In this document: positions 3,049 through 60,485 of the stretch, one piece after another
Position numbering within the stretch: the stretch's first letter is position 1
How the letters are laid out: each line of letters starts with the position of its first letter
IMG/VR virus record: IMGVR_UViG_2651869695_000003
Strand: one strand, 5' to 3'
Length of the DNA: 64,000 bases
Source: a virus
Taxonomy: Duplodnaviria > Heunggongvirae > Uroviricota > Caudoviricetes
Translations under genes and position numbers: made by a program
Notes under the pieces: model-generated
What the model saw: the letters and a program-made list of their open reading frames with translations, nothing else
The model's database searches: none
What the model was told of the DNA's origin: nothing

Positions 3049-3531
3049 ATGCAGGTACTAAATTCCCAGCGTAAAGCTTTCCTCGATATGGTGGCATGGT
3101 CAGAAGGAACGGATAACGGGCGACAACCGACACGTAACCACGGTTATGACGTTATTGTCGGAGGTGAACTGTTCACTGATTACTCCGATCACCCTCGCAA
3201 ACTTGTCACGCTAAACCCGAAACTTAAATCAACAGCCGCAGGACGTTATCAGCTTCTTTCACGCTGGTGGGATGCTTACCGTAAGCAGCTTGGGCTGAAA
3301 GACTTCTCTCCAAAAAGCCAGGATGCTGTGGCATTGCAGCAGATTAAAGAGCGTGGTGCTTTACCGATGATTGATCGCGGCGATATCCGTCAGGCTATTG
3401 ATCGTTGCAGCAATATCTGGGCGTCATTGCCGGGCGCTGGTTATGGTCAGTTCGAACATAAGGTTGACAGCCTGATTGAAAAATTCAAAGAATCGGGCGG
3501 AACGGTCAGAGAAATTCAGCTATATGAGTAG
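3049..3531 (+). CDS. R: Endolysin, lambda R-type lytic transglycosylase
   Basis: Translation near-identical to lambda R as I recall it ([21 protein letters not shown]...[24 protein letters not shown]...). Confidence 0.85.
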
Positions 3532-3988
3532 AGTAACTGCGATTCTGTCCTCTCTGGTTATCTGCACCATCGTCTGCCTATCATGGGCTGTTAATCATTA
3601 TCGTGATAACGCCATCGCCTACAAAGAACAGCGCGATAAAGCGAAGGAAAAACTCAGCCAGGCGAACGCCACCATTACTGAGATGCAGCAGCGCCAGCGT
3701 GATGTTTCTGCGCTCGATGCGAAATACACCGGAGAACTTGCAAATGCTAAAGCAACTATTGAACAGCTTCAGCGTGATGTTGCTGTTGGCACTAAGCGGC
3801 TGTTCCTCGCCGCTAGTTGCCCGAGAGTGCAATCAACGACCATTACCACCAGCCTGGATGATGCTACCGCCCCCCGACTTACTGACACCGCTCAACGGGA
3901 TTATTTCACCCTCAGAGAGAGAATTGAAATCAGTTATAAACAGATAAGAGCATTGCAGGACTATATCTCTAGTCAGTGTGAAAAATAA
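3524..3988 (+). CDS. Rz: i-spanin Rz
   Basis: Start ATG overlaps R stop (ATGAGTAG); MSRVTAI...[15 protein letters not shown] matches lambda Rz N-terminus; ORF track start 3476 is an upstream extension. Confidence 0.8.
3744..3947 (+). CDS. Rz1: o-spanin Rz1 lipoprotein, embedded in Rz in +1 frame
   Basis: Signal peptide ending ...LLALSGC then [27 protein letters not shown], matching lambda Rz1 proline-rich motif; taken from internal Met of 114-aa ORF. Confidence 0.75.
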
Positions 3989-4069
3989 AATTGCTTTCGA
4001 TGTATGGATCTGGACATCTTTTTTTTCTACTATGCTGACTGAGAATTGAAACGTATATGGATATTCTAT

Positions 4070-4828
4070 ATGAAAAGAAAAAAATTAGAAGGTCCCGGGT
4101 GTGAATCATATGAAGGGTTAGATGTTGAATATTATATTGATTCCGAAACGGGGGAATTTAAAGCGGTTTATACATTCAATAATGAAATTGTAGATCGCAT
4201 AAAATTGAGTGGGCGTATTGCCGATAGAGCATCTTCACTGTCCCTAATTCATAGGGACTTAAAAAGTGCTAAAGAGTGGTACCAAATAGCTAATGAACTG
4301 GCAGGGAGAAACGAATTAAGGACAGATGGCAAGTTATACGGGAATATACTTGATCTAGATTTATCAAGTGAAATTAGAGCGTTATTTGTGGCAAGCCTAA
4401 CGTTTTATGGTAAAGCTTTCTCTGAAGCTAAAGGGAGAAAGTTAAAGATGGAGCGTGATTGGCTTGATTCTGAATATTTTGGGTTGCATGACTGTATTAT
4501 TAACTACAGGCATAATTTTGCAGCACATAGCGGCAACCAAGACTATGAGTCAGCAGAAACTTCATTGTTACTAATAAGGAAAAATGGGAAAACATTTTAT
4601 CAAGCAGTGACAGATAGAAAACAACTGAGCATGATTGGTGTCGAGGACGAGCATGTTGATATGATTAATTTATTTGAACATGCGATACAGGTTGTTGAGA
4701 AAAAATATAATGAAACATTAGAGAGAATTAGAACCTATGTCATGCAAAAGAGTTATTCTTTTTGGTGTTTAGCTGCCACAGGGAAAGATCCCGTCAATTT
4801 AGATAAGTTAAATAAGAAGAAAAAATAA
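4070..4828 (+). CDS. Hypothetical AT-rich moron protein between Rz and HNH
   Basis: 252-aa ORF from first ATG (ORF track starts at TTG 4046); low GC versus neighbours; no recognisable domain. Confidence 0.45.
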   Translation: MKRKKLEGPGCESYEGLDVEYYIDSETGEFKAVYTFNNEIVDRIKLSGRIADRASSLSLIHRDLKSAKEWYQIANELAGRNELRTDGKLYGNILDLDLSSEIRALFVASLTFYGKAFSEAKGRKLKMERDWLDSEYFGLHDCIINYRHNFAAHSGNQDYESAETSLLLIRKNGKTFYQAVTDRKQLSMIGVEDEHVDMINLFEHAIQVVEKKYNETLERIRTYVMQKSYSFWCLAATGKDPVNLDKLNKKKK

Positions 4829-4907
4829 ACCTACTCTTCACATTAGTAACATTAGTAGATGCTAAGCCACTAGCAATCGATGGTGGCTTTTTTATTGGAG
4901 CTTACCA

Positions 4908-5258
4908 ATGCCACCACGAACCCCAAAAGCCTGCCGTGTTCGCGGCTGCCGCTCTACAACCACAGACCCGTCAGGCTACTGCGAAAGCCACAAAAGCGAA
5001 GGCTGGAAGCAATACAAGCCAGGTCAGTCCCGTCATCAGCGCGGTTATGGTTCGAAGTGGGACGCTATCCGCGCGCGTGTGCTGAAGCGTGACAAAGGTT
5101 TATGTCAGTTATGTCTGCGTGCCGGTGTGGTGCGTGAGGCGAAAACCGTTGACCACATCATCCCTAAAGCGCATGGCGGCACTGATGCCGACTGTAATCT
5201 GCAGAGTCTGTGTTGGCCGTGTCATAAGGCGAAGACGGCCCGTGAACGGTTAAAGTGA
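4908..5258 (+). CDS. HNH endonuclease (terminase-associated)
   Basis: CxxC ... DHIIPKAHGGTD ... CWPCH motifs; position immediately upstream of terminase small subunit as in HK97-like phages. Confidence 0.75.
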   Translation: MPPRTPKACRVRGCRSTTTDPSGYCESHKSEGWKQYKPGQSRHQRGYGSKWDAIRARVLKRDKGLCQLCLRAGVVREAKTVDHIIPKAHGGTDADCNLQSLCWPCHKAKTARERLK

Positions 5259-5374: not shown

Positions 5375-5878
5375 GTGCCGCATATGGCTGGAACGACGGG
5401 GCGTTCCGGGCGTCGCCCCAAGCCAACGGCGCGCAAGGCGCTGGCCGGAAATCCCGGCAAGCGAGCCCTGAACAAAGATGAACCTGTTTTTACGCCCATC
5501 AAAGGTGTTGAGCCACCGGAGTGGTTCGCTGAAGAAGATCTCCCTCTCGCCACGATCATGTGGCAACTGACAACCAAAGAACTCTGCGGTCAGGGCCTGC
5601 TGTGCGTGACTGACCTCGCGGTGCTTGAGCGGTGGTGCGTGGCCTACGAGTTCTGGCGACGTGCCGTGAAAAATATTGCCAGACAGGGCAACACCATCAC
5701 CGGTGCAATGGGCGGTATGGTCAAAAATCCGGAGCTGACCGCCAAAAAAGAACAGGAGTCCGAGATGAGCAGTACGGGGGCAATGCTCGGACTCGACCCC
5801 AGCAGCCGCCAGCGTCTGATTGGCCTGGCGGGGAAGAAGAAAGCCACTAACCCGTTTCTGAAAATCATCGAATCATGA
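5375..5878 (+). CDS. Terminase small subunit
   Basis: 167-aa basic ORF between HNH and large terminase, translationally coupled to next gene. Confidence 0.7.
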
Positions 5879-7608
5879 GCCGGAAATCTTACCCCAACGT
5901 AAATGCTGCCAATCAGTATGCCCGGGATGTCGTGCGCGGAAAGATTGTGGCCTGCCAGTTTGTGATTCAGGCCTGCCAGCGCCATCTTGATGACCTGATG
6001 GCGGAAAAAAGTAAGTCGTTTCGTTACCGCTTCGACAAGGACCTGGCTGAACGGGCCGCCAAATTTATTCAGCTGTTGCCGCACACCAAGGGTGAGTGGG
6101 CATTCAAGAGGATGCCCATCACGCTGGAGCCGTGGCAGCTCTTTGTGATCTGCTGCGCGTTTGGCTGGGTCAATAAAGGCTCCCGGCTGCGCCGCTTCAG
6201 GGAGGTGTATACCGAAATCCCCCGTAAGAACGGCAAATCGGCAATCTCTGCCGGTGTCGCTCTGTATTGTTTTGCCTGTGATAACGAGTTCGGCGCGGAA
6301 GTGTATTCCGGTGCCACGACGGAGAAACAGGCATGGGAAGTCTTTCGCCCGGCGCGACTGATGTGTAAACGCACACCAATGCTGACGGAAGCGTTCGGGA
6401 TTGAGGTTAACGCCTCAAACATGAACCGTCCGGAGGATGGCGCGCGGTTTGAACCGCTGATCGGTAACCCCGGTGATGGTTCATCACCCCACTGTGCGGT
6501 GGTGGATGAATATCACGAGCACGCCACCGATGCGCTTTACACCACGATGCTTACCGGGATGGGGGCGCGACGTCAGCCACTGATGTGGGCCATTACTACT
6601 GCCGGGTACAACATTGAGGGGCCGTGCTACGACAAGCGGCGGGAAGTTATCGAGATGCTCAACGGGTCGGTGCCTAACGATGAACTGTTCGGGATCATCT
6701 ATACCGTTGATGAAGGTGACGACTGGACCGACCCGCAGGTGCTGGAAAAAGCCAATCCAAATATTGGCGTGTCGGTTTATCGCGAATTTTTGTTAAGTCA
6801 GCAACAGCGTGCGAAAAATAACGCCCGTCTGGCAAACGTCTTTAAAACAAAACACCTCAATATCTGGGTGTCGGCGCGTTCGGCGTATTTCAACCTGGTG
6901 AGCTGGCAGAGCTGCGAGGATAAATCACTGACCCTTGAGCAGTTCGAGGGGCAGCCGTGCATTCTGGCCTTTGACTTGGCGCGTAAACTGGATATGAACA
7001 GCATGGCGCGACTTTATACCCGCGAGATTGACGGTAAAACGCATTACTACAGTGTGGCCCCGCGTTTCTGGGTACCGTATGACACGGTGTACAGCGTCGA
7101 GAAAAATGAAGATCGACGGACAGCCGAACGCTTTCAGAAATGGGTGGAAATGGGCGTTCTGACCGTTACCGATGGTGCGGAAGTGGATTATCGCTACATC
7201 CTCGAGGAGGCCAAAGCGGCGAACAAAATCAGCCCGGTCAGTGAGTCACCCATCGACCCCTTCGGGGCGACCGGGCTGTCACATGACCTTGCTGATGAAG
7301 ACCTGAACCCCATCACTATCATTCAGAACTACACCAACATGTCCGATCCGATGAAAGAGCTGGAAGCGGCAATTGAATCGGGGCGCTTTCATCATGATGG
7401 CAATCCCATCATGACCTGGTGTATCGGCAACGTGGTCGGCAAAACCATTCCGGGTAACGATGATGTGGTGAAGCCCGTCAAAGAGCAGGCGGAAAACAAA
7501 ATCGATGGTGCAGTTGCGCTGATTATGGCGGTTGGCAGAGCCATGCTGTACGAGAAAGAAGACACGCTGTCTGACCACATTGAGTCCTATGGGATCCGCT
7601 CGCTTTAA
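5875..7608 (+). CDS. Terminase large subunit
   Basis: 577 aa; ATPase and nuclease regions typical of TerL (VVDEYHE ... [10 protein letters not shown]). Confidence 0.9.
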
Positions 7609-22234: not shown

Positions 22235-23218
22235 ATGCATCGTATAGACACGAAAACCGCGCAGAAGGATAAGTTCGGCGCGGGTAAGAACGGTTTTACC
22301 CGTGGTAACCCCCAGACCGGCACACCTGCCACCGATCTTGATGATGACTACTTTGATATGTTGCAGGAAGAACTCTGCAGCGTGGTGGAGGCATCCGGTG
22401 CCAGCCTGGAGAAGGGGCGGCATGACCAGCTGCTTACCGCGCTTCGTGCGCTGCTGTTAAGCCGCAAGAATCCGTTTAGCGATATCAAATCGGATGGCAC
22501 GGTGAAAACGGCTCTCGAAAACCTTGGTTTGGGAGAAGCCAGATTCTCTGGTCGTTTGTTAAACACGAATATTTTTAAAAGCTCTGGAAAATATATCCCA
22601 ACACTAGGGACAAAAAAGATAAGGGTCATTGCCTCTGGTGGCGGTGGCGGCGGCGGTGGGGTTCCTGAAACAACAGAAAATCAGCAGGCAACAGCCGGAG
22701 CTGGATTGAGCGGTGCATTTATTGAAGCATTTTTCGAGGTTGATAATGATTTCGAAGTCAACGTTATTATCGGTGCTGCAGGTAAAGGGGGGGGAGCCGG
22801 AAGAAATTCAGGTAGTGAAGGTGGCACAACTTATTTCGGTTCCCTGATAACTGCACCGGGTGGTACAGGCGGTGGCGCGGGGGGAGCATCTGCAAACACA
22901 TCATATATTCAGGGTATTTCATGGGGTGCCAGTCCGACATCGTCCGGTACTGTACTAAGAGCATTTCGCTGTAGTGCAAAAACACCAGGAGCAATGGTTA
23001 TCTCTGTTAAAGCTGTTGCAGGTGGTACCGGGGGGGATACACCACTAGGTTCAGGCGGTATAGGTGGTGCAAGTTCTTCATCATTCAGCGGACGTGGTGG
23101 TGGTAAAGCTGAGGGCTTTGGTGCTGGCGGAGGCGGAGCCTGCGCACCTGCCGGAAGTGAGGCTCAATCGGGAGGTGACGGTGCCCCGGGAATAGTTATT
23201 GTTGAGGAGTATGCCTGA
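22235..23218 (+). CDS. Tail fibre protein, variant A (constant N-terminus 102 aa + Gly-rich variable C-terminus)
   Basis: First 102 aa identical to the fibre at 23869..24531; C-terminus rich in GGxGG repeats. Confidence 0.8.
22512..22537. other. Candidate Din-family invertase crossover site (left)
   Basis: CTCTCGAAAACC-TT-GGTTTGGGAGAA fits the hix/gix/cix-type pattern (TTnTCnnAAACC-NN-GGTTTnnGAnAA, from memory); lies at the constant/variable junction. Confidence 0.55.
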
Positions 23219-23481
23219 TGAGTAATTTTGCTCTGATTGAACATGGCGTGGTGAAAAATATTATTATCTGGGATGGAGAGGGTGATTTATTCTCTAACTG
23301 CGAAATTATAAATATTGATCATATAGATGCAGGCGTCGGTTGGTTCTATTCTGACGGAGAGTTTATAGCACCACCGGAACCGGAAATGACTGAATATGAT
23401 GTTGGTAATATCGACGCGGTGATGGAATCAGATACCAGCACCGCGCCGGACGTCATCTGGCCTGAACTGCCGGAGGCGTAG
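23218..23481 (+). CDS. Tail fibre assembly protein for variant A
   Basis: 87 aa; start overlaps fibre A stop (TGATG); C-terminus ...[12 protein letters not shown] resembles Tfa C-termini. Confidence 0.55.
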   Translation: MSNFALIEHGVVKNIIIWDGEGDLFSNCEIINIDHIDAGVGWFYSDGEFIAPPEPEMTEYDVGNIDAVMESDTSTAPDVIWPELPEA

Positions 23482-23872
23482 GCCATTCAATATCTGGCGC
23501 ACCGGAAGTATCGACCAGTTCCAGTGCGTCCAGGTAATCCAGCCACAAATTATATTGCGCCAGTTCCTCACCTTTCAGACGACCAATAGCGGCTTTACCA
23601 GGCCATTGCTTACTGTTCATGTATTCGTTGGCCTGTTCAATAAGTATACTTTTCATTCCCTCCGCTTCAGCTATTTCCTGTTCCTGTGTCTTCGCTGGAT
23701 ATTCAGTAAGTACAGGGTAGTTATCCGGATTATTGATAATAATTTTCCCCGTACTCTGACCATTCATAAGTTCATAATAAAGAGCATCTTCAATATCGAA
23801 AGCATCATCGGGAATATCGCTGTTATTTTCAGAGAAAAATCCCTGAACAGATGGGGACCATTTCATTTTCAT
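23453..23872 (-). CDS. Tail fibre assembly protein for variant B
   Basis: 139 aa; coupled to fibre B; C-terminus ...[15 protein letters not shown]; 3' end overlaps convergent tfa A by 29 nt. Confidence 0.7.
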
Positions 23873-24531
23873 AATTTCCCAATTCCTAAAATGTGGACAT
23901 CATCAGCCTTACGGGCATTCCAGGTGACAATTACATCGGTAGAGTGACGATTAACTGAGATTGCATATGCTTCGTTAGTCGAGCCAGAAACTTTTGTAGC
24001 AAACACAGCAAACAGGACACCAAATGACTGGGGCCATTTATAGCCTGACAGCTGATAATTACCATTATTCAGTGTTACAGCTTTGGCTGCTGCACTTGAT
24101 GGAATCGTCAGCCACTGAAGTATCAACCCTCCTGGCAAAAGTTGTTTTCCGTAATAATCCCTCACCCCACTAAATGAAGCCATGTCCGGTATCTGATTTT
24201 CCCCTGTTCCCACATTTCGTTTTGCCGCTTCTCCCAAACCAAGGTTTTCGAGAGCCGTTTTCACCGTGCCATCCGATTTGATATCGCTAAACGGATTCTT
24301 GCGGCTTAACAGCAGCGCACGAAGCGCGGTAAGCAGCTGGTCATGCCGCCCCTTCTCCAGGCTGGCACCGGATGCCTCCACCACGCTGCAGAGTTCTTCC
24401 TGCAACATATCAAAGTAGTCATCATCAAGATCGGTGGCAGGTGTGCCGGTCTGGGGGTTACCACGGGTAAAACCGTTCTTACCCGCGCCGAACTTATCCT
24501 TCTGCGCGGTTTTCGTGTCTATACGATGCAT
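23869..24531 (-). CDS. Tail fibre protein, variant B (same constant N-terminus, different C-terminal receptor-binding region)
   Basis: N-terminal 102 aa identical to variant A, then unrelated C-terminus. Confidence 0.8.
24229..24254. other. Candidate Din-family invertase crossover site (right, inverted)
   Basis: TTCTCCCAAACC-AA-GGTTTTCGAGAG, reverse complement of left site. Confidence 0.55.
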
Positions 24532-41858: not shown

Positions 41859-41937
41859 TGGTAAGCTCCAATAAAAAAGCCACCATCGATTGCTAGTGGC
41901 TTAGCATCTACTAATGTTACTAATGTGAAGAGTAGGT

Positions 41938-42696
41938 TTATTTTTTCTTCTTATTTAACTTATCTAAATTGACGGGATCTTTCCCTGTGGCAGCTAAACA
42001 CCAAAAAGAATAACTCTTTTGCATGACATAGGTTCTAATTCTCTCTAATGTTTCATTATATTTTTTCTCAACAACCTGTATCGCATGTTCAAATAAATTA
42101 ATCATATCAACATGCTCGTCCTCGACACCAATCATGCTCAGTTGTTTTCTATCTGTCACTGCTTGATAAAATGTTTTCCCATTTTTCCTTATTAGTAACA
42201 ATGAAGTTTCTGCTGACTCATAGTCTTGGTTGCCGCTATGTGCTGCAAAATTATGCCTGTAGTTAATAATACAGTCATGCAACCCAAAATATTCAGAATC
42301 AAGCCAATCACGCTCCATCTTTAACTTTCTCCCTTTAGCTTCAGAGAAAGCTTTACCATAAAACGTTAGGCTTGCCACAAATAACGCTCTAATTTCACTT
42401 GATAAATCTAGATCAAGTATATTCCCGTATAACTTGCCATCTGTCCTTAATTCGTTTCTCCCTGCCAGTTCATTAGCTATTTGGTACCACTCTTTAGCAC
42501 TTTTTAAGTCCCTATGAATTAGGGACAGTGAAGATGCTCTATCGGCAATACGCCCACTCAATTTTATGCGATCTACAATTTCATTATTGAATGTATAAAC
42601 CGCTTTAAATTCCCCCGTTTCGGAATCAATATAATATTCAACATCTAACCCTTCATATGATTCACACCCGGGACCTTCTAATTTTTTTCTTTTCAT
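41938..42696 (-). CDS. Hypothetical AT-rich moron protein (copy 2)
   Basis: Identical inverted copy of 4070..4828. Confidence 0.45.
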   Translation of the reverse strand: MKRKKLEGPGCESYEGLDVEYYIDSETGEFKAVYTFNNEIVDRIKLSGRIADRASSLSLIHRDLKSAKEWYQIANELAGRNELRTDGKLYGNILDLDLSSEIRALFVASLTFYGKAFSEAKGRKLKMERDWLDSEYFGLHDCIINYRHNFAAHSGNQDYESAETSLLLIRKNGKTFYQAVTDRKQLSMIGVEDEHVDMINLFEHAIQVVEKKYNETLERIRTYVMQKSYSFWCLAATGKDPVNLDKLNKKKK

Positions 42697-56034: not shown

Positions 56035-56241
56035 ATGCTGAACCTCGATTGTGTTCCTATCTCAACTTATTGCAAAGAAACTGGCGAAACTCCTGAAGCA
56101 ATAAACAAACGTGTACAGCGCGGTGTTTGGCGTGAAGGTGTTCAGGTTTTAAAGGTTGAAGGCGTTAAGGAGAGGTGGATTGATCTTAGTGAGGTTGCAA
56201 AATGGGCCAGACAAAACTGCTCAAACTACCGCGCGGCGTAA
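56035..56241 (+). CDS. Excisionase-like DNA-binding protein
   Basis: Small basic protein immediately upstream of and overlapping integrase. Confidence 0.55.
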   Translation: MLNLDCVPISTYCKETGETPEAINKRVQRGVWREGVQVLKVEGVKERWIDLSEVAKWARQNCSNYRAA

Positions 56242-57377
56242 CAATCAGGAAACACCGCCAGGGAGAAACGATCAATATAACTTTCACCTACAAAGGAGTT
56301 AGATGTCGTGAGCCACTTTCCAATCTGGAAGTAACACCAAAGAACATTAAATACGCCGAGCGTACACTCGGCGAAATCCATAATAAGATCGAAAGGGGAA
56401 CATTCATTTATGCAGAATATTTTCCCCGTTCTGCTCGTTTGAAAATTTTTGGTAATGCTGCCACTGGCAAAACGGTAAAAATGTACCTGGACGAATATCT
56501 TGAAATCTGCGAAACGAGGAAACTATCACCATCCACGATTGGTGGTTATAAAAAATGCCGGAGTGCGTTAGCCTCGCTTCACATTTGCCCTGCAAGTGAA
56601 TTAACACCAGCAACCCTGAAAGCGTGGATTCAAAGCCAAAAAACGACCTTAAAAACCATTCGCAACCAGTTATCTTTCCTGCGGTCAGCACTTGATGAAG
56701 CCGTAACCGATGGGGTACTTCAAATTAATCCCGTATCGTTAGTAACTGCTTCGCGCTACCAAAGTGATAAGTCAGAAGCAGAAAGCAGCTACGTGGTTGA
56801 TCCGCTATCACCAGCAGAAGTTGATGCATTACTAGCAGCAGCCGGAAACAAACAATGGGAGAATCTGTTCCGGTTCGCTATACATACAGGTCTGCGTAGT
56901 TCTGAATTATGTGCCCTTCGATGGCGTGATATTGACTTTGTAGGGATGACTGCCCACGTCCAGAGCGCCAGTGTTGTTGGTGTAATCAAAGGTACCAAAA
57001 CAAAAGCAGGTACTCGAAAAGTTGAACTGACAGATGAAGCAATGTCTGCACTAATAAATCAGAAACCGTTCACTTTCATGAAGGACGCGACTGTCTTTGA
57101 AGATCCAAAAACCAATAAACCTTGGGCCAGCGCAGACGCCATAAGAAAGAAGGCATGGGTGCCAACTTTACGTAAAGCCGGAGTCCGTTACCGTAATCCT
57201 TATCAAACTAGACATACATTTGCTACAAAACACATTAGTCAAGGTGTTAATTTGTTTTGGTTAGCCGCTCAAATGGGGCATAAAGGACCAGAAATGCTAT
57301 TTAGGCATTACGGCCGTTATCTTAAAGATTATGATAACAATAGCACACACAATCATTTGATAAATTGTACTAATTAA
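56202..57377 (+). CDS. Tyrosine integrase (phage integrase family)
   Basis: C-terminal catalytic region with R...HxxR...Y pattern (TRHTFATKHI ... LFRHYGRY). Confidence 0.9.
   Translation: MGQTKLLKLPRGVTIRKHRQGETINITFTYKGVRCREPLSNLEVTPKNIKYAERTLGEIHNKIERGTFIYAEYFPRSARLKIFGNAATGKTVKMYLDEYLEICETRKLSPSTIGGYKKCRSALASLHICPASELTPATLKAWIQSQKTTLKTIRNQLSFLRSALDEAVTDGVLQINPVSLVTASRYQSDKSEAESSYVVDPLSPAEVDALLAAAGNKQWENLFRFAIHTGLRSSELCALRWRDIDFVGMTAHVQSASVVGVIKGTKTKAGTRKVELTDEAMSALINQKPFTFMKDATVFEDPKTNKPWASADAIRKKAWVPTLRKAGVRYRNPYQTRHTFATKHISQGVNLFWLAAQMGHKGPEMLFRHYGRYLKDYDNNSTHNHLINCTN

Positions 57378-58540: not shown

Positions 58541-60485
<1,945 letters not shown>

Follow-up and report, generated by a model that had tools for sequence, protein, structure and literature searches.

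The 64,000-nucleotide stretch of virus record IMGVR_UViG_2651869695_000003 analyzed here (the window) contains an e14/SfV-like Escherichia coli prophage with ymfL, ymfR, an HK97-type head, and a Mu-like contractile tail. Between the lysis and packaging genes of this prophage lies an AT-rich gene (positions 4070-4828, + strand; hereafter the cargo gene). The cargo gene is a single-gene mobile cassette (moron) that was acquired horizontally and occupies a lysis-to-packaging hotspot. It is a real gene under purifying selection, as judged from the ratio of nonsynonymous to synonymous substitution rates (dN/dS of 0.17 against an 89%-identical relative, locus L023) and from the large family to which it belongs. 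By analogy with the prophage proteins HepS and Tha, the moron may encode a solo HEPN-like abortive-infection effector, a reading to which we give roughly even odds (a probability of about 0.5).

A cargo gene in the lysis-to-packaging slot

The maximal open reading frame (ORF) in the ORF list spans positions 4046-4828 on the + strand, with a TTG start and a length of 260 aa, and an ATG at position 4070 gives a protein of 252 aa in the same frame, ending at the stop at 4828. The ATG is taken as the start because the Prokaryotic Genome Annotation Pipeline (PGAP) uses it for the identical gene of E. coli R12 (WP_001407090.1, 'hypothetical protein') and because the homologues in our alignments begin at this position, with the consensus M-K/P-R-K-K-L. 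An earlier reading of the window from its sequence only had described an ORF of about 252 aa with a much lower GC content than its neighbors, and this description holds: the GC content is 0.354 (0.31 at third codon positions, GC3), compared with 0.494 for the holin-to-Rz region, 0.567 for the HNH gene, and 0.552 for the terminase genes. The gene was also correctly placed between the spanins and the HNH/terminase module, with Rz (PF03245) upstream and HNH (PF01844), TerS, and TerL downstream. The features of the cassette and its flanks, together with the second copy of the gene in a mirrored arm of the window, are:

3476-3988 (PGAP start 3524), + strand: Rz i-spanin gene, left flank (PF03245, E 2e-40; PGAP 'lysis protein')
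3603-3947, + strand: Rz1-like lipoprotein frame embedded in Rz, end of the lysis cassette (ORF list)
3989-4069, + strand: AT-rich 81-bp spacer from the Rz stop to the cargo start, left end of the cassette
4070-4828, + strand: cargo coding sequence, 252 aa plus stop, identical to RefSeq WP_001407090.1
4487-4489, + strand: codon of the invariant residue H140 (alignments A1 and A2)
4508-4528, + strand: Rx5H codons R147-H-N-F-A-A-H153, proposed RNase active site (alignments, AlphaFold2)
4864-4897 (hairpin 4864-4889), + strand: terminator-like hairpin followed by UUUUUUAUU, right end of the cassette (folding)
4908-5258, + strand: HNH endonuclease gene, opening the packaging module (PF01844, E 5e-15; PGAP)
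5375-5878: P27-type TerS, small terminase (PGAP annotation)
5875-7608: TerL, large terminase (PGAP annotation)
41938-42696, - strand: exact second copy of the cargo coding sequence, mirrored arm (self-BLAST, identical translation)
about 41877-41902: mirror terminator of the second cargo copy

The content of the slot between Rz and HNH differs among related prophages. The slot is empty in L017, where 26 bp separate LysC from HNH, and is filled in L016 by iss (a bor homologue) on the opposite strand, in L018 by two small hypothetical genes, and in L019 by another, different pair of small hypothetical genes with a hairpin of its own. The presence of iss in exactly this slot in close relatives supports the earlier suggestion that the gene sits where lambda carries bor, as does a Citrobacter lambda-like prophage in which a 50%-identical homologue lies between the spanin and the Nu1/GpA terminase, the position of bor in lambda. 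Alignments with relatives that lack the gene or carry other cargo end at the Rz stop on the left, and the right breakpoint falls within about 10 bp of the HNH start. The cassette delimited in this way (3989-4907) comprises the 81-bp AT-rich spacer, the ORF, and the terminator-like hairpin; the spacer is kept only in the 89%-identical relative L023, and the terminator is likewise kept there. The cassette has the attributes of a moron, namely an extra gene between genes that are adjacent in related phages (L017), a deviant GC content, and, in this element, a terminator of its own, which is missing in relatives with 60% identity. Amongst 5,426 complete E. coli genomes, the cargo gene is carried by 23 (every copy with at least 98.8% identity), and the flanking lysis or packaging genes are found in thousands. 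The gene is regarded as cargo because the slot varies among relatives, because few genomes carry the gene, and because its GC content deviates.

The gene had also been called an orphan, a label that does not survive comparison with a wider set of sequences. A word-indexed search found 197 homologues; in an exhaustive profile search, the number of 50%-identity cluster representatives was 885 at E <= 0.001 and 446 at E <= 1e-10. Family members are nearly all 220-260 aa long and single-domain, and their hosts include enterobacteria, Pseudomonas, Vibrio, and Burkholderia. The sole match of the cargo protein in PHROGs is phrog_8440 (E 3e-117), a family of 'unknown function', and neither Pfam nor PHROGs gave a match to a virion or packaging protein, the kind of homology that the earlier reading had named as refuting.

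The genomic contexts of the family are varied (e.g., lysis-to-packaging slots, early regions, and integrase ends). In four enterobacterial HK97-like prophage lineages (60-89% identity), the homologue occupies the Rz-to-HNH slot. In Pseudomonas prophages it lies in the early-left region on the strand opposite to its neighbors, and in phage 2H10 and 13 IMG/VR contigs it directly adjoins the integrase. A Vibrio filamentous prophage (inovirus) carries the homologue after zot; this is the end at which CTXphi carries ctxAB. In a Burkholderia chromosomal islet the homologue adjoins a Tlde1 effector. Tailed and filamentous prophages thus carry the homologues at four or more accessory positions, and at all nine loci checked the surroundings have a higher GC content than the gene (e.g., 0.58 versus 0.40 in Pseudomonas). 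A conserved partner or antitoxin gene was considered and rejected, since the neighbors differ in every context examined; the copies in E. coli, Citrobacter, and 2H10 stand alone, with no MNT gene nearby. A functional link to the HNH and terminase genes, which adjoin the gene in the four enterobacterial lineages, was also rejected, since the gene occurs without HNH in the lambda-like, Pseudomonas, 2H10, and inovirus contexts. The varied contexts, the lack of a shared neighbor, and the AT-richness together point to a self-sufficient, horizontally shuttled one-gene module.

Two further observations concern the Pseudomonas copies. One or two small ORFs (63-89 aa) of no known family follow these copies on the same strand (at about 8770-9260 in L003-L007 and at 8766-9288 in L002); they are not present with the enterobacterial copies and could be lineage-specific partners or regulators. 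Genes for NA37 (YejK-like nucleoid-associated) proteins recur near or beside family members in Pseudomonas prophages (L002, L028-L030), and the two may co-occur as accessory genes.

Putative active site, proposed function, and alternatives

The sequence-only reading saw no recognizable catalytic motif in the protein, a view that the alignments overturn. Across 53 family sequences (alignment A1), the blocks FVAsLTFYGKxF, GR, HD, and YRHNFAAHSG are invariant or nearly so. Across 62 divergent members (alignment A2), with identities down to about 20%, the sole invariant residues are Y113, R123, H140, R147, and H153. R147 and H153 form an Rx5H motif (RHNFAAH) that is invariant in both the 53 and the 62 sequences. 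H occupies position 148 in at least 90% of A1, and N is seen there in others (e.g., P0005 and P0107, 'RNNFAAH'), such that a polar residue (N, D, or H in HEPN proteins) directly follows the conserved R. [quoted passage not shown]

A confident AlphaFold2 model built on the family alignment (predicted local distance difference test score (pLDDT) 85.8, predicted template modeling score (pTM) 0.82) has an N-terminal beta-hairpin (residues 17-36) and four long helices (49-80, 96-115, 134-151, and 198-224). Helices 2 and 3 are separated by an 18-residue insert, and a long beta-hairpin (160-185) directly follows the Rx5H motif. The predicted helices form a four-helix up-down bundle of two alpha-hairpins, the arrangement expected of a HEPN domain. 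Read at the level of predicted helix and loop boundaries, R147 belongs to the last turn of helix 3, and the loop that follows has H153 at its start. In the HEPN superfamily, the Rx4-6H motif is located at the end of helix 3 or in the following loop, the R is typically followed by N, D, or H, and inserts between helices 2 and 3 are characteristic; Csx1 has a beta-hairpin after the motif, and some families have a second conserved His N-terminal to it (PMC3710099). The family is read as HEPN-like because it matches these features (the position of the Rx4-6H motif, the polar residue, the helix 2-3 insert, the hairpin, and the second His), and on the basis of the model the Rx5H motif is probably a HEPN-type active site. 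The protein lacks a hydrophobic or transmembrane segment (the highest Kyte-Doolittle mean over 19 residues is 1.08), as the sequence-only reading had stated, and has no signal peptide or lipobox; the product is accordingly predicted to be a cytoplasmic stand-alone protein.

By analogy with HepS and Tha, we infer for the cargo protein an RNase activity, an anti-phage role, a trigger, an oligomeric state, and a timing of expression that includes the lysogen. In the lysogen the protein would be an oligomer that stays inactive without an antitoxin until a component of an infecting phage activates it, with sensing perhaps occurring via the two beta-hairpins. The activated protein would cleave RNA (tRNA, rRNA, or mRNA) in a metal-independent manner via H153 and R147, and translation would stop and the infection would abort.

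The defense reading of the gene is based on a DefensePredictor score, on the presence of defense genes in the Q-to-holin slot, and on the precedent of solo HEPN proteins. Table S10 of the DefensePredictor study (PMC13092281) lists 1,041 uncharacterized predicted-defense clusters of the E. coli pangenome, including cluster WP_001407090.1 under the label 'Putative novel defense gene' (representative row WP_073313554.1, 252 aa; mean log-odds 8.2, minimum 6.0, strict cutoff 4). The HHblits and Foldseek columns are empty in this row. In the literature, the accession WP_001407090.1 appears in no main text and only in this one supplementary table. In the Q-to-holin slot, which neighbors that of the cargo gene, relative L021 carries Kiwa (KwaA/KwaB) and relative L023 carries an NA37/YejK-like gene; the YejK domain has been newly validated in defense (PMC13092281). 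The gene had been suggested to be lysogenic-conversion or anti-phage cargo. That it is horizontally acquired cargo is confirmed, and an anti-phage role agrees with the HEPN-like motif and with DefensePredictor, while a conversion factor of the Bor/Iss type is close to refuted.

Several results weigh against a HEPN-like effector acting from the lysogen. No Pfam match was found for the 53 and 62 family members, the family consensus, or the motif core (E <= 10). The cargo protein has no match in PADLOC-DB v2 or NCBIfam, and a PADLOC search with the 62 members gave one spurious match to Dsr1 (E 0.015). Two family profiles compared with PDB sequences recovered no HEPN or HepS chain at E <= 10, only noise, in a sequence set made in 2026 for which the inclusion of 9OIJ/9OIK is unconfirmed and without a direct comparison to HepS. 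A profile-profile comparison (hhalign) with E. coli RnlA, a bona fide HEPN RNase and the sole HEPN reference used, gave a probability of 0.1%, and Foldseek searches of PDB and BFVD returned nothing below E 0.03, with poor TM-scores. Cluster WP_001407090.1 was not among the units cloned in the DefensePredictor study and has a machine-learning score only, and about 45% of the cloned predictions protected (PMC13092281). With regard to expression, the 81-bp spacer contains no sigma-70 promoter of workable geometry by a consensus scan (at least 9 of 12 positions). The cargo gene has the orientation of the late operon and is not separated from Rz by a terminator, and in L020 and L021 (60% identity) the homologue lies 10-20 bp from HNH, without a terminator.

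The best-surviving alternative retains the anti-phage or conflict role without a HEPN RNase. Here Y113, R123, H140, R147, and H153 would serve another chemistry (e.g., a metal site, or nucleotide or DNA processing), or the protein would block a phage component. We consider this alternative rather unlikely: the Rx5H motif, made up of two of the five invariant residues, is found at the canonical end of helix 3 with a polar residue following its R, and in some accepted HEPN families a further His is conserved on the N-terminal side of the motif. A metal-binding H-D...H...H site was considered and down-weighted, since neither D141 nor H148 is invariant in the divergent alignment; this also speaks against a fixed metal triad.

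The expression data bear on a second alternative, in which the gene is a late-operon accessory gene serving the lytic growth of its carrier (e.g., through host RNA turnover, late exclusion of co-infecting phages, or counter-defense) rather than defense of the lysogen. The orientation of the gene, the lack of a terminator after Rz, and the absence of a usable upstream promoter favor it. A relaxed promoter scan yielded only candidates overlapping the cargo ATG, with the best matches overlapping or lying downstream of it, and the Shine-Dalgarno sequence is weak (TGGA). The packing in L020 and L021 points the same way, and in L021 the called start of the homologue overlaps the Rz stop; this packing, together with the absence of a promoter, means that expression may be late-lytic rather than lysogenic. 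Against this stand the dispensability of the gene (the slot is empty or otherwise filled in close relatives, and the gene is found in the 23 of 5,426 genomes mentioned above), its occurrence on the opposite strand in the early-left region of Pseudomonas prophages, beside the integrase in 2H10, and in an inovirus, and the defensive score given by DefensePredictor. The Pseudomonas and 2H10 homologues cannot belong to the neighboring operons, and in Pseudomonas the opposite orientation means that the gene needs its own promoter. Overall, the late-lytic reading is a live rival, though slightly less likely than the non-HEPN one.

Downstream of the gene, the hairpin at 4864-4889 has a 9-bp stem and an 8-nt loop, is followed by UUUUUUAUU, and has a folding energy of -12.8 kcal/mol (z -2.67); the terminator-like element ends 10 bp before the HNH start codon. 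Such a terminator would insulate the packaging genes from transcription in the lysogen, and Q would override it. The best promoter-like match nearby is at 3464-3493 on the + strand, at the endolysin/Rz junction (TTGACA-18-AAGAAT, 10 of 12 positions), and the region has about as many such matches as expected by chance. If active in the lysogen, the site at 3464-3493 would drive a transcript through Rz/Rz1 and the cargo gene that ends at the terminator at 4864-4889.

A third alternative, that the gene is a selfish toxin or addiction module that stabilizes the prophage, with an RNase toxin that is countered by an unrecognized small RNA or protein or by a host factor, and with no anti-phage role, is improbable. 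It would share the putative RNase with the abortive-infection reading, but no antitoxin-like partner is kept across contexts, the solitary E. coli, Citrobacter, and 2H10 copies have no MNT gene nearby, and in solo HEPN proteins (e.g., HepS) toxicity sets in only upon triggering. Lastly, a Bor/Iss-type lysogenic-conversion or virulence factor, or a virion or packaging protein, is close to refuted: the gene shares the slot of iss and bor and adjoins HNH and terminase in four enterobacterial lineages, but it has no signal peptide, lipobox, or transmembrane segment and no similarity to Bor/Iss or to virion or packaging families (Pfam, PHROGs), is unlinked to HNH and terminase in other phages, and is variably present in its lineage.

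The solo HEPN-like abortive-infection effector remains our preferred reading. A more far-reaching form of it seems unlikely, namely an immune one-gene cassette that crosses between contractile-tail, lambda-like, and filamentous phages and encodes a non-classical HEPN protein (Rx5H with H140, R123, and Y113) with a beta-hairpin sensor for a new kind of trigger, and that may act from the late operon during the lytic cycle of its carrier, excluding co-infecting phages, rather than from the lysogen. Since the gene shares the strand of the late operon and has the packaging genes directly downstream, the carrier must tolerate or exploit the nuclease during its own induction; the late-operon position would therefore pose the question of self-immunity sharply if the nuclease reading is true.

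Surroundings of the cassette

P27/HK97-type prophages have a second cargo hotspot besides the Q-to-holin slot, namely the Rz-to-HNH junction, which merits mining. The Q-to-holin slot of the present element holds a second AT-rich island (1010-2422, - strand, GC content 0.39), with a mirror copy in the right arm of the window. The island encodes a 313-aa protein (phrog_7651) followed by a 153-aa protein (phrog_8552), the latter apparently membrane-spanning; both genes are antisense to the late operon, and neither has a match in Pfam, PADLOC, or NCBIfam. The island is likely an uncharacterized two-gene defense system, and we regard it as a candidate. In E. coli R12, whose prophage is 98.5% identical and integrated at ssrA, genes for a cytosine methyltransferase and a type II restriction endonuclease adjoin pinE at the far end of the prophage (locus L025, 13849-16525), and this is a third site of defense cargo in the phage lineage. 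The related genome GN4143 carries extra cargo at the integrase end, consisting of an AAA ATPase, a DNA adenine methylase, and a second integrase.

Positions 1-22539 of the window are the exact reverse complement of positions 24227-46765 (100.000% identity, 0 gaps, self-BLAST). The arms of this palindrome, 22,539 bp each, surround a 1,687-bp center (22540-24226), and the left arm reaches the edge of the window. As a result, the cargo gene and the prophage late region (from the DUF968-like and Q genes to the tail fiber) are present twice, head to head. The center holds two opposed alternative tail-fiber C-termini with assembly genes and one shared constant N-terminus. The tail-fiber genes lie at 22235-23218 on the + strand (327 aa, with a Gly-rich C-terminus) and at 24531-23869 on the - strand (220 aa); their N-termini are identical over about 101 aa, and a separate assembly gene follows each. 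The region 22235-24531 looks like an invertible host-range switch of the Mu G/e14 P type. No pin/gin invertase gene adjoins the tail-fiber segment in the window, and strain R12 has pinE at this position. The 22.5-kb palindrome is most likely a fold-back misassembly at the invertible tail-fiber segment, with a real head-to-head duplication as the less likely explanation. The prophage integrase (56202-57377; Arm-DNA-bind_2 and Phage_integrase) lies near the right end of the window, and beyond it is an IS21-family element on the - strand (IstA-like 59342-60406, IstB 58607-59341).

Comparison with known systems

The closest precedents for the proposed function are HEPN proteins encoded by prophages. 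HepS (STM14_3211; PDB 9OIJ/9OIK) of the Salmonella prophage Gifsy-1 is a partner-less HEPN protein that forms an inactive tetramer at rest, is opened by the tail-tip protein of an incoming phage (J of siphoviruses), and then cuts tRNA anticodon loops; it is non-toxic until triggered, and Gifsy-1 escapes its own HepS through a non-triggering tail tip (PMC13043305). The HepS family, as defined by PSI-BLAST, comprises proteins of less than 250 aa with an Rx4H motif (PMC13043305). The cargo protein differs from HepS in several respects. The motif is Rx4H (R100-H105) in HepS and Rx5H (R147-H153) in the cargo family, and the cargo protein is further predicted to have the N-terminal beta-hairpin and the beta-hairpin after the motif. 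The genes also occupy different slots, that of HepS being in the replication/antirepressor region and that of the cargo gene between lysis and packaging. Furthermore, the cargo gene is carried by a contractile-tail phage, and the trigger of HepS (the siphovirus J tail tip) is thus not simply transferable.

The second precedent is Tha of Staphylococcus aureus prophages, a HEPN RNase that has minor tail proteins as triggers and is restrained by a prophage inhibitor (PMC11087260). The proteins Tha-1 and Tha-2 have a length of 301 aa, with an unstructured N-terminal half and an Rx4H motif (R265-H270; PMC11087260), and have no sequence similarity to the cargo protein. Tha is paired with a cognate inhibitor (Ith) encoded in a non-contiguous operon, and no counterpart was seen for the cargo gene. 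The HepT toxins of HEPN-MNT toxin-antitoxin systems (PDB 5yep, 8xdj) are also among the closest known systems, as are the HEPN families of abortive-infection proteins (AbiV, Abi2/AbiD/AbiF, AbiJ, and AbiU2; PMC3710099), which likewise are stand-alone or single-gene proteins on mobile elements. In AbiV-type families another His is conserved on the N-terminal side of the motif (PMC3710099), comparable to H140 of the cargo family. However, the Pfam models of the Abi HEPN families match none of 115 cargo family members nor the consensus, and membership in these families is unsupported. Across the searches made, the cargo family shows no detectable relation to HepS, Tha, HepT, RnlA, or the Abi HEPN families.

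Bor and Iss resemble the cargo gene in location, since they occupy the same lysis-to-packaging hotspot and iss lies exactly in the Rz-to-HNH slot of related prophages. In contrast, they are outer-membrane lipoproteins of about 97 aa encoded antisense to the late operon, and the cargo gene encodes a 252-aa, apparently cytoplasmic protein on the late-operon strand.

Prophage morons encoding HEPN abortive-infection proteins are an established theme, and the present case holds no conceptual surprise. The kind (a prophage moron with a solo HEPN abortive-infection nuclease) is known, and the cargo family itself is new, being absent from Pfam, PADLOC, and NCBIfam. The family was flagged earlier in a 2026 supplementary table, with neither a fold nor a mechanism, and that anonymous DefensePredictor prediction now gains a concrete, testable mechanistic hypothesis. 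The family is distinct in the Rx5H spacing, three further invariant residues, two beta-hairpins, and an unusually large number of carrier types, including an inovirus. If the prediction is true, a new and widespread family would join the small set of partner-less prophage HEPN nucleases represented by HepS and Tha.

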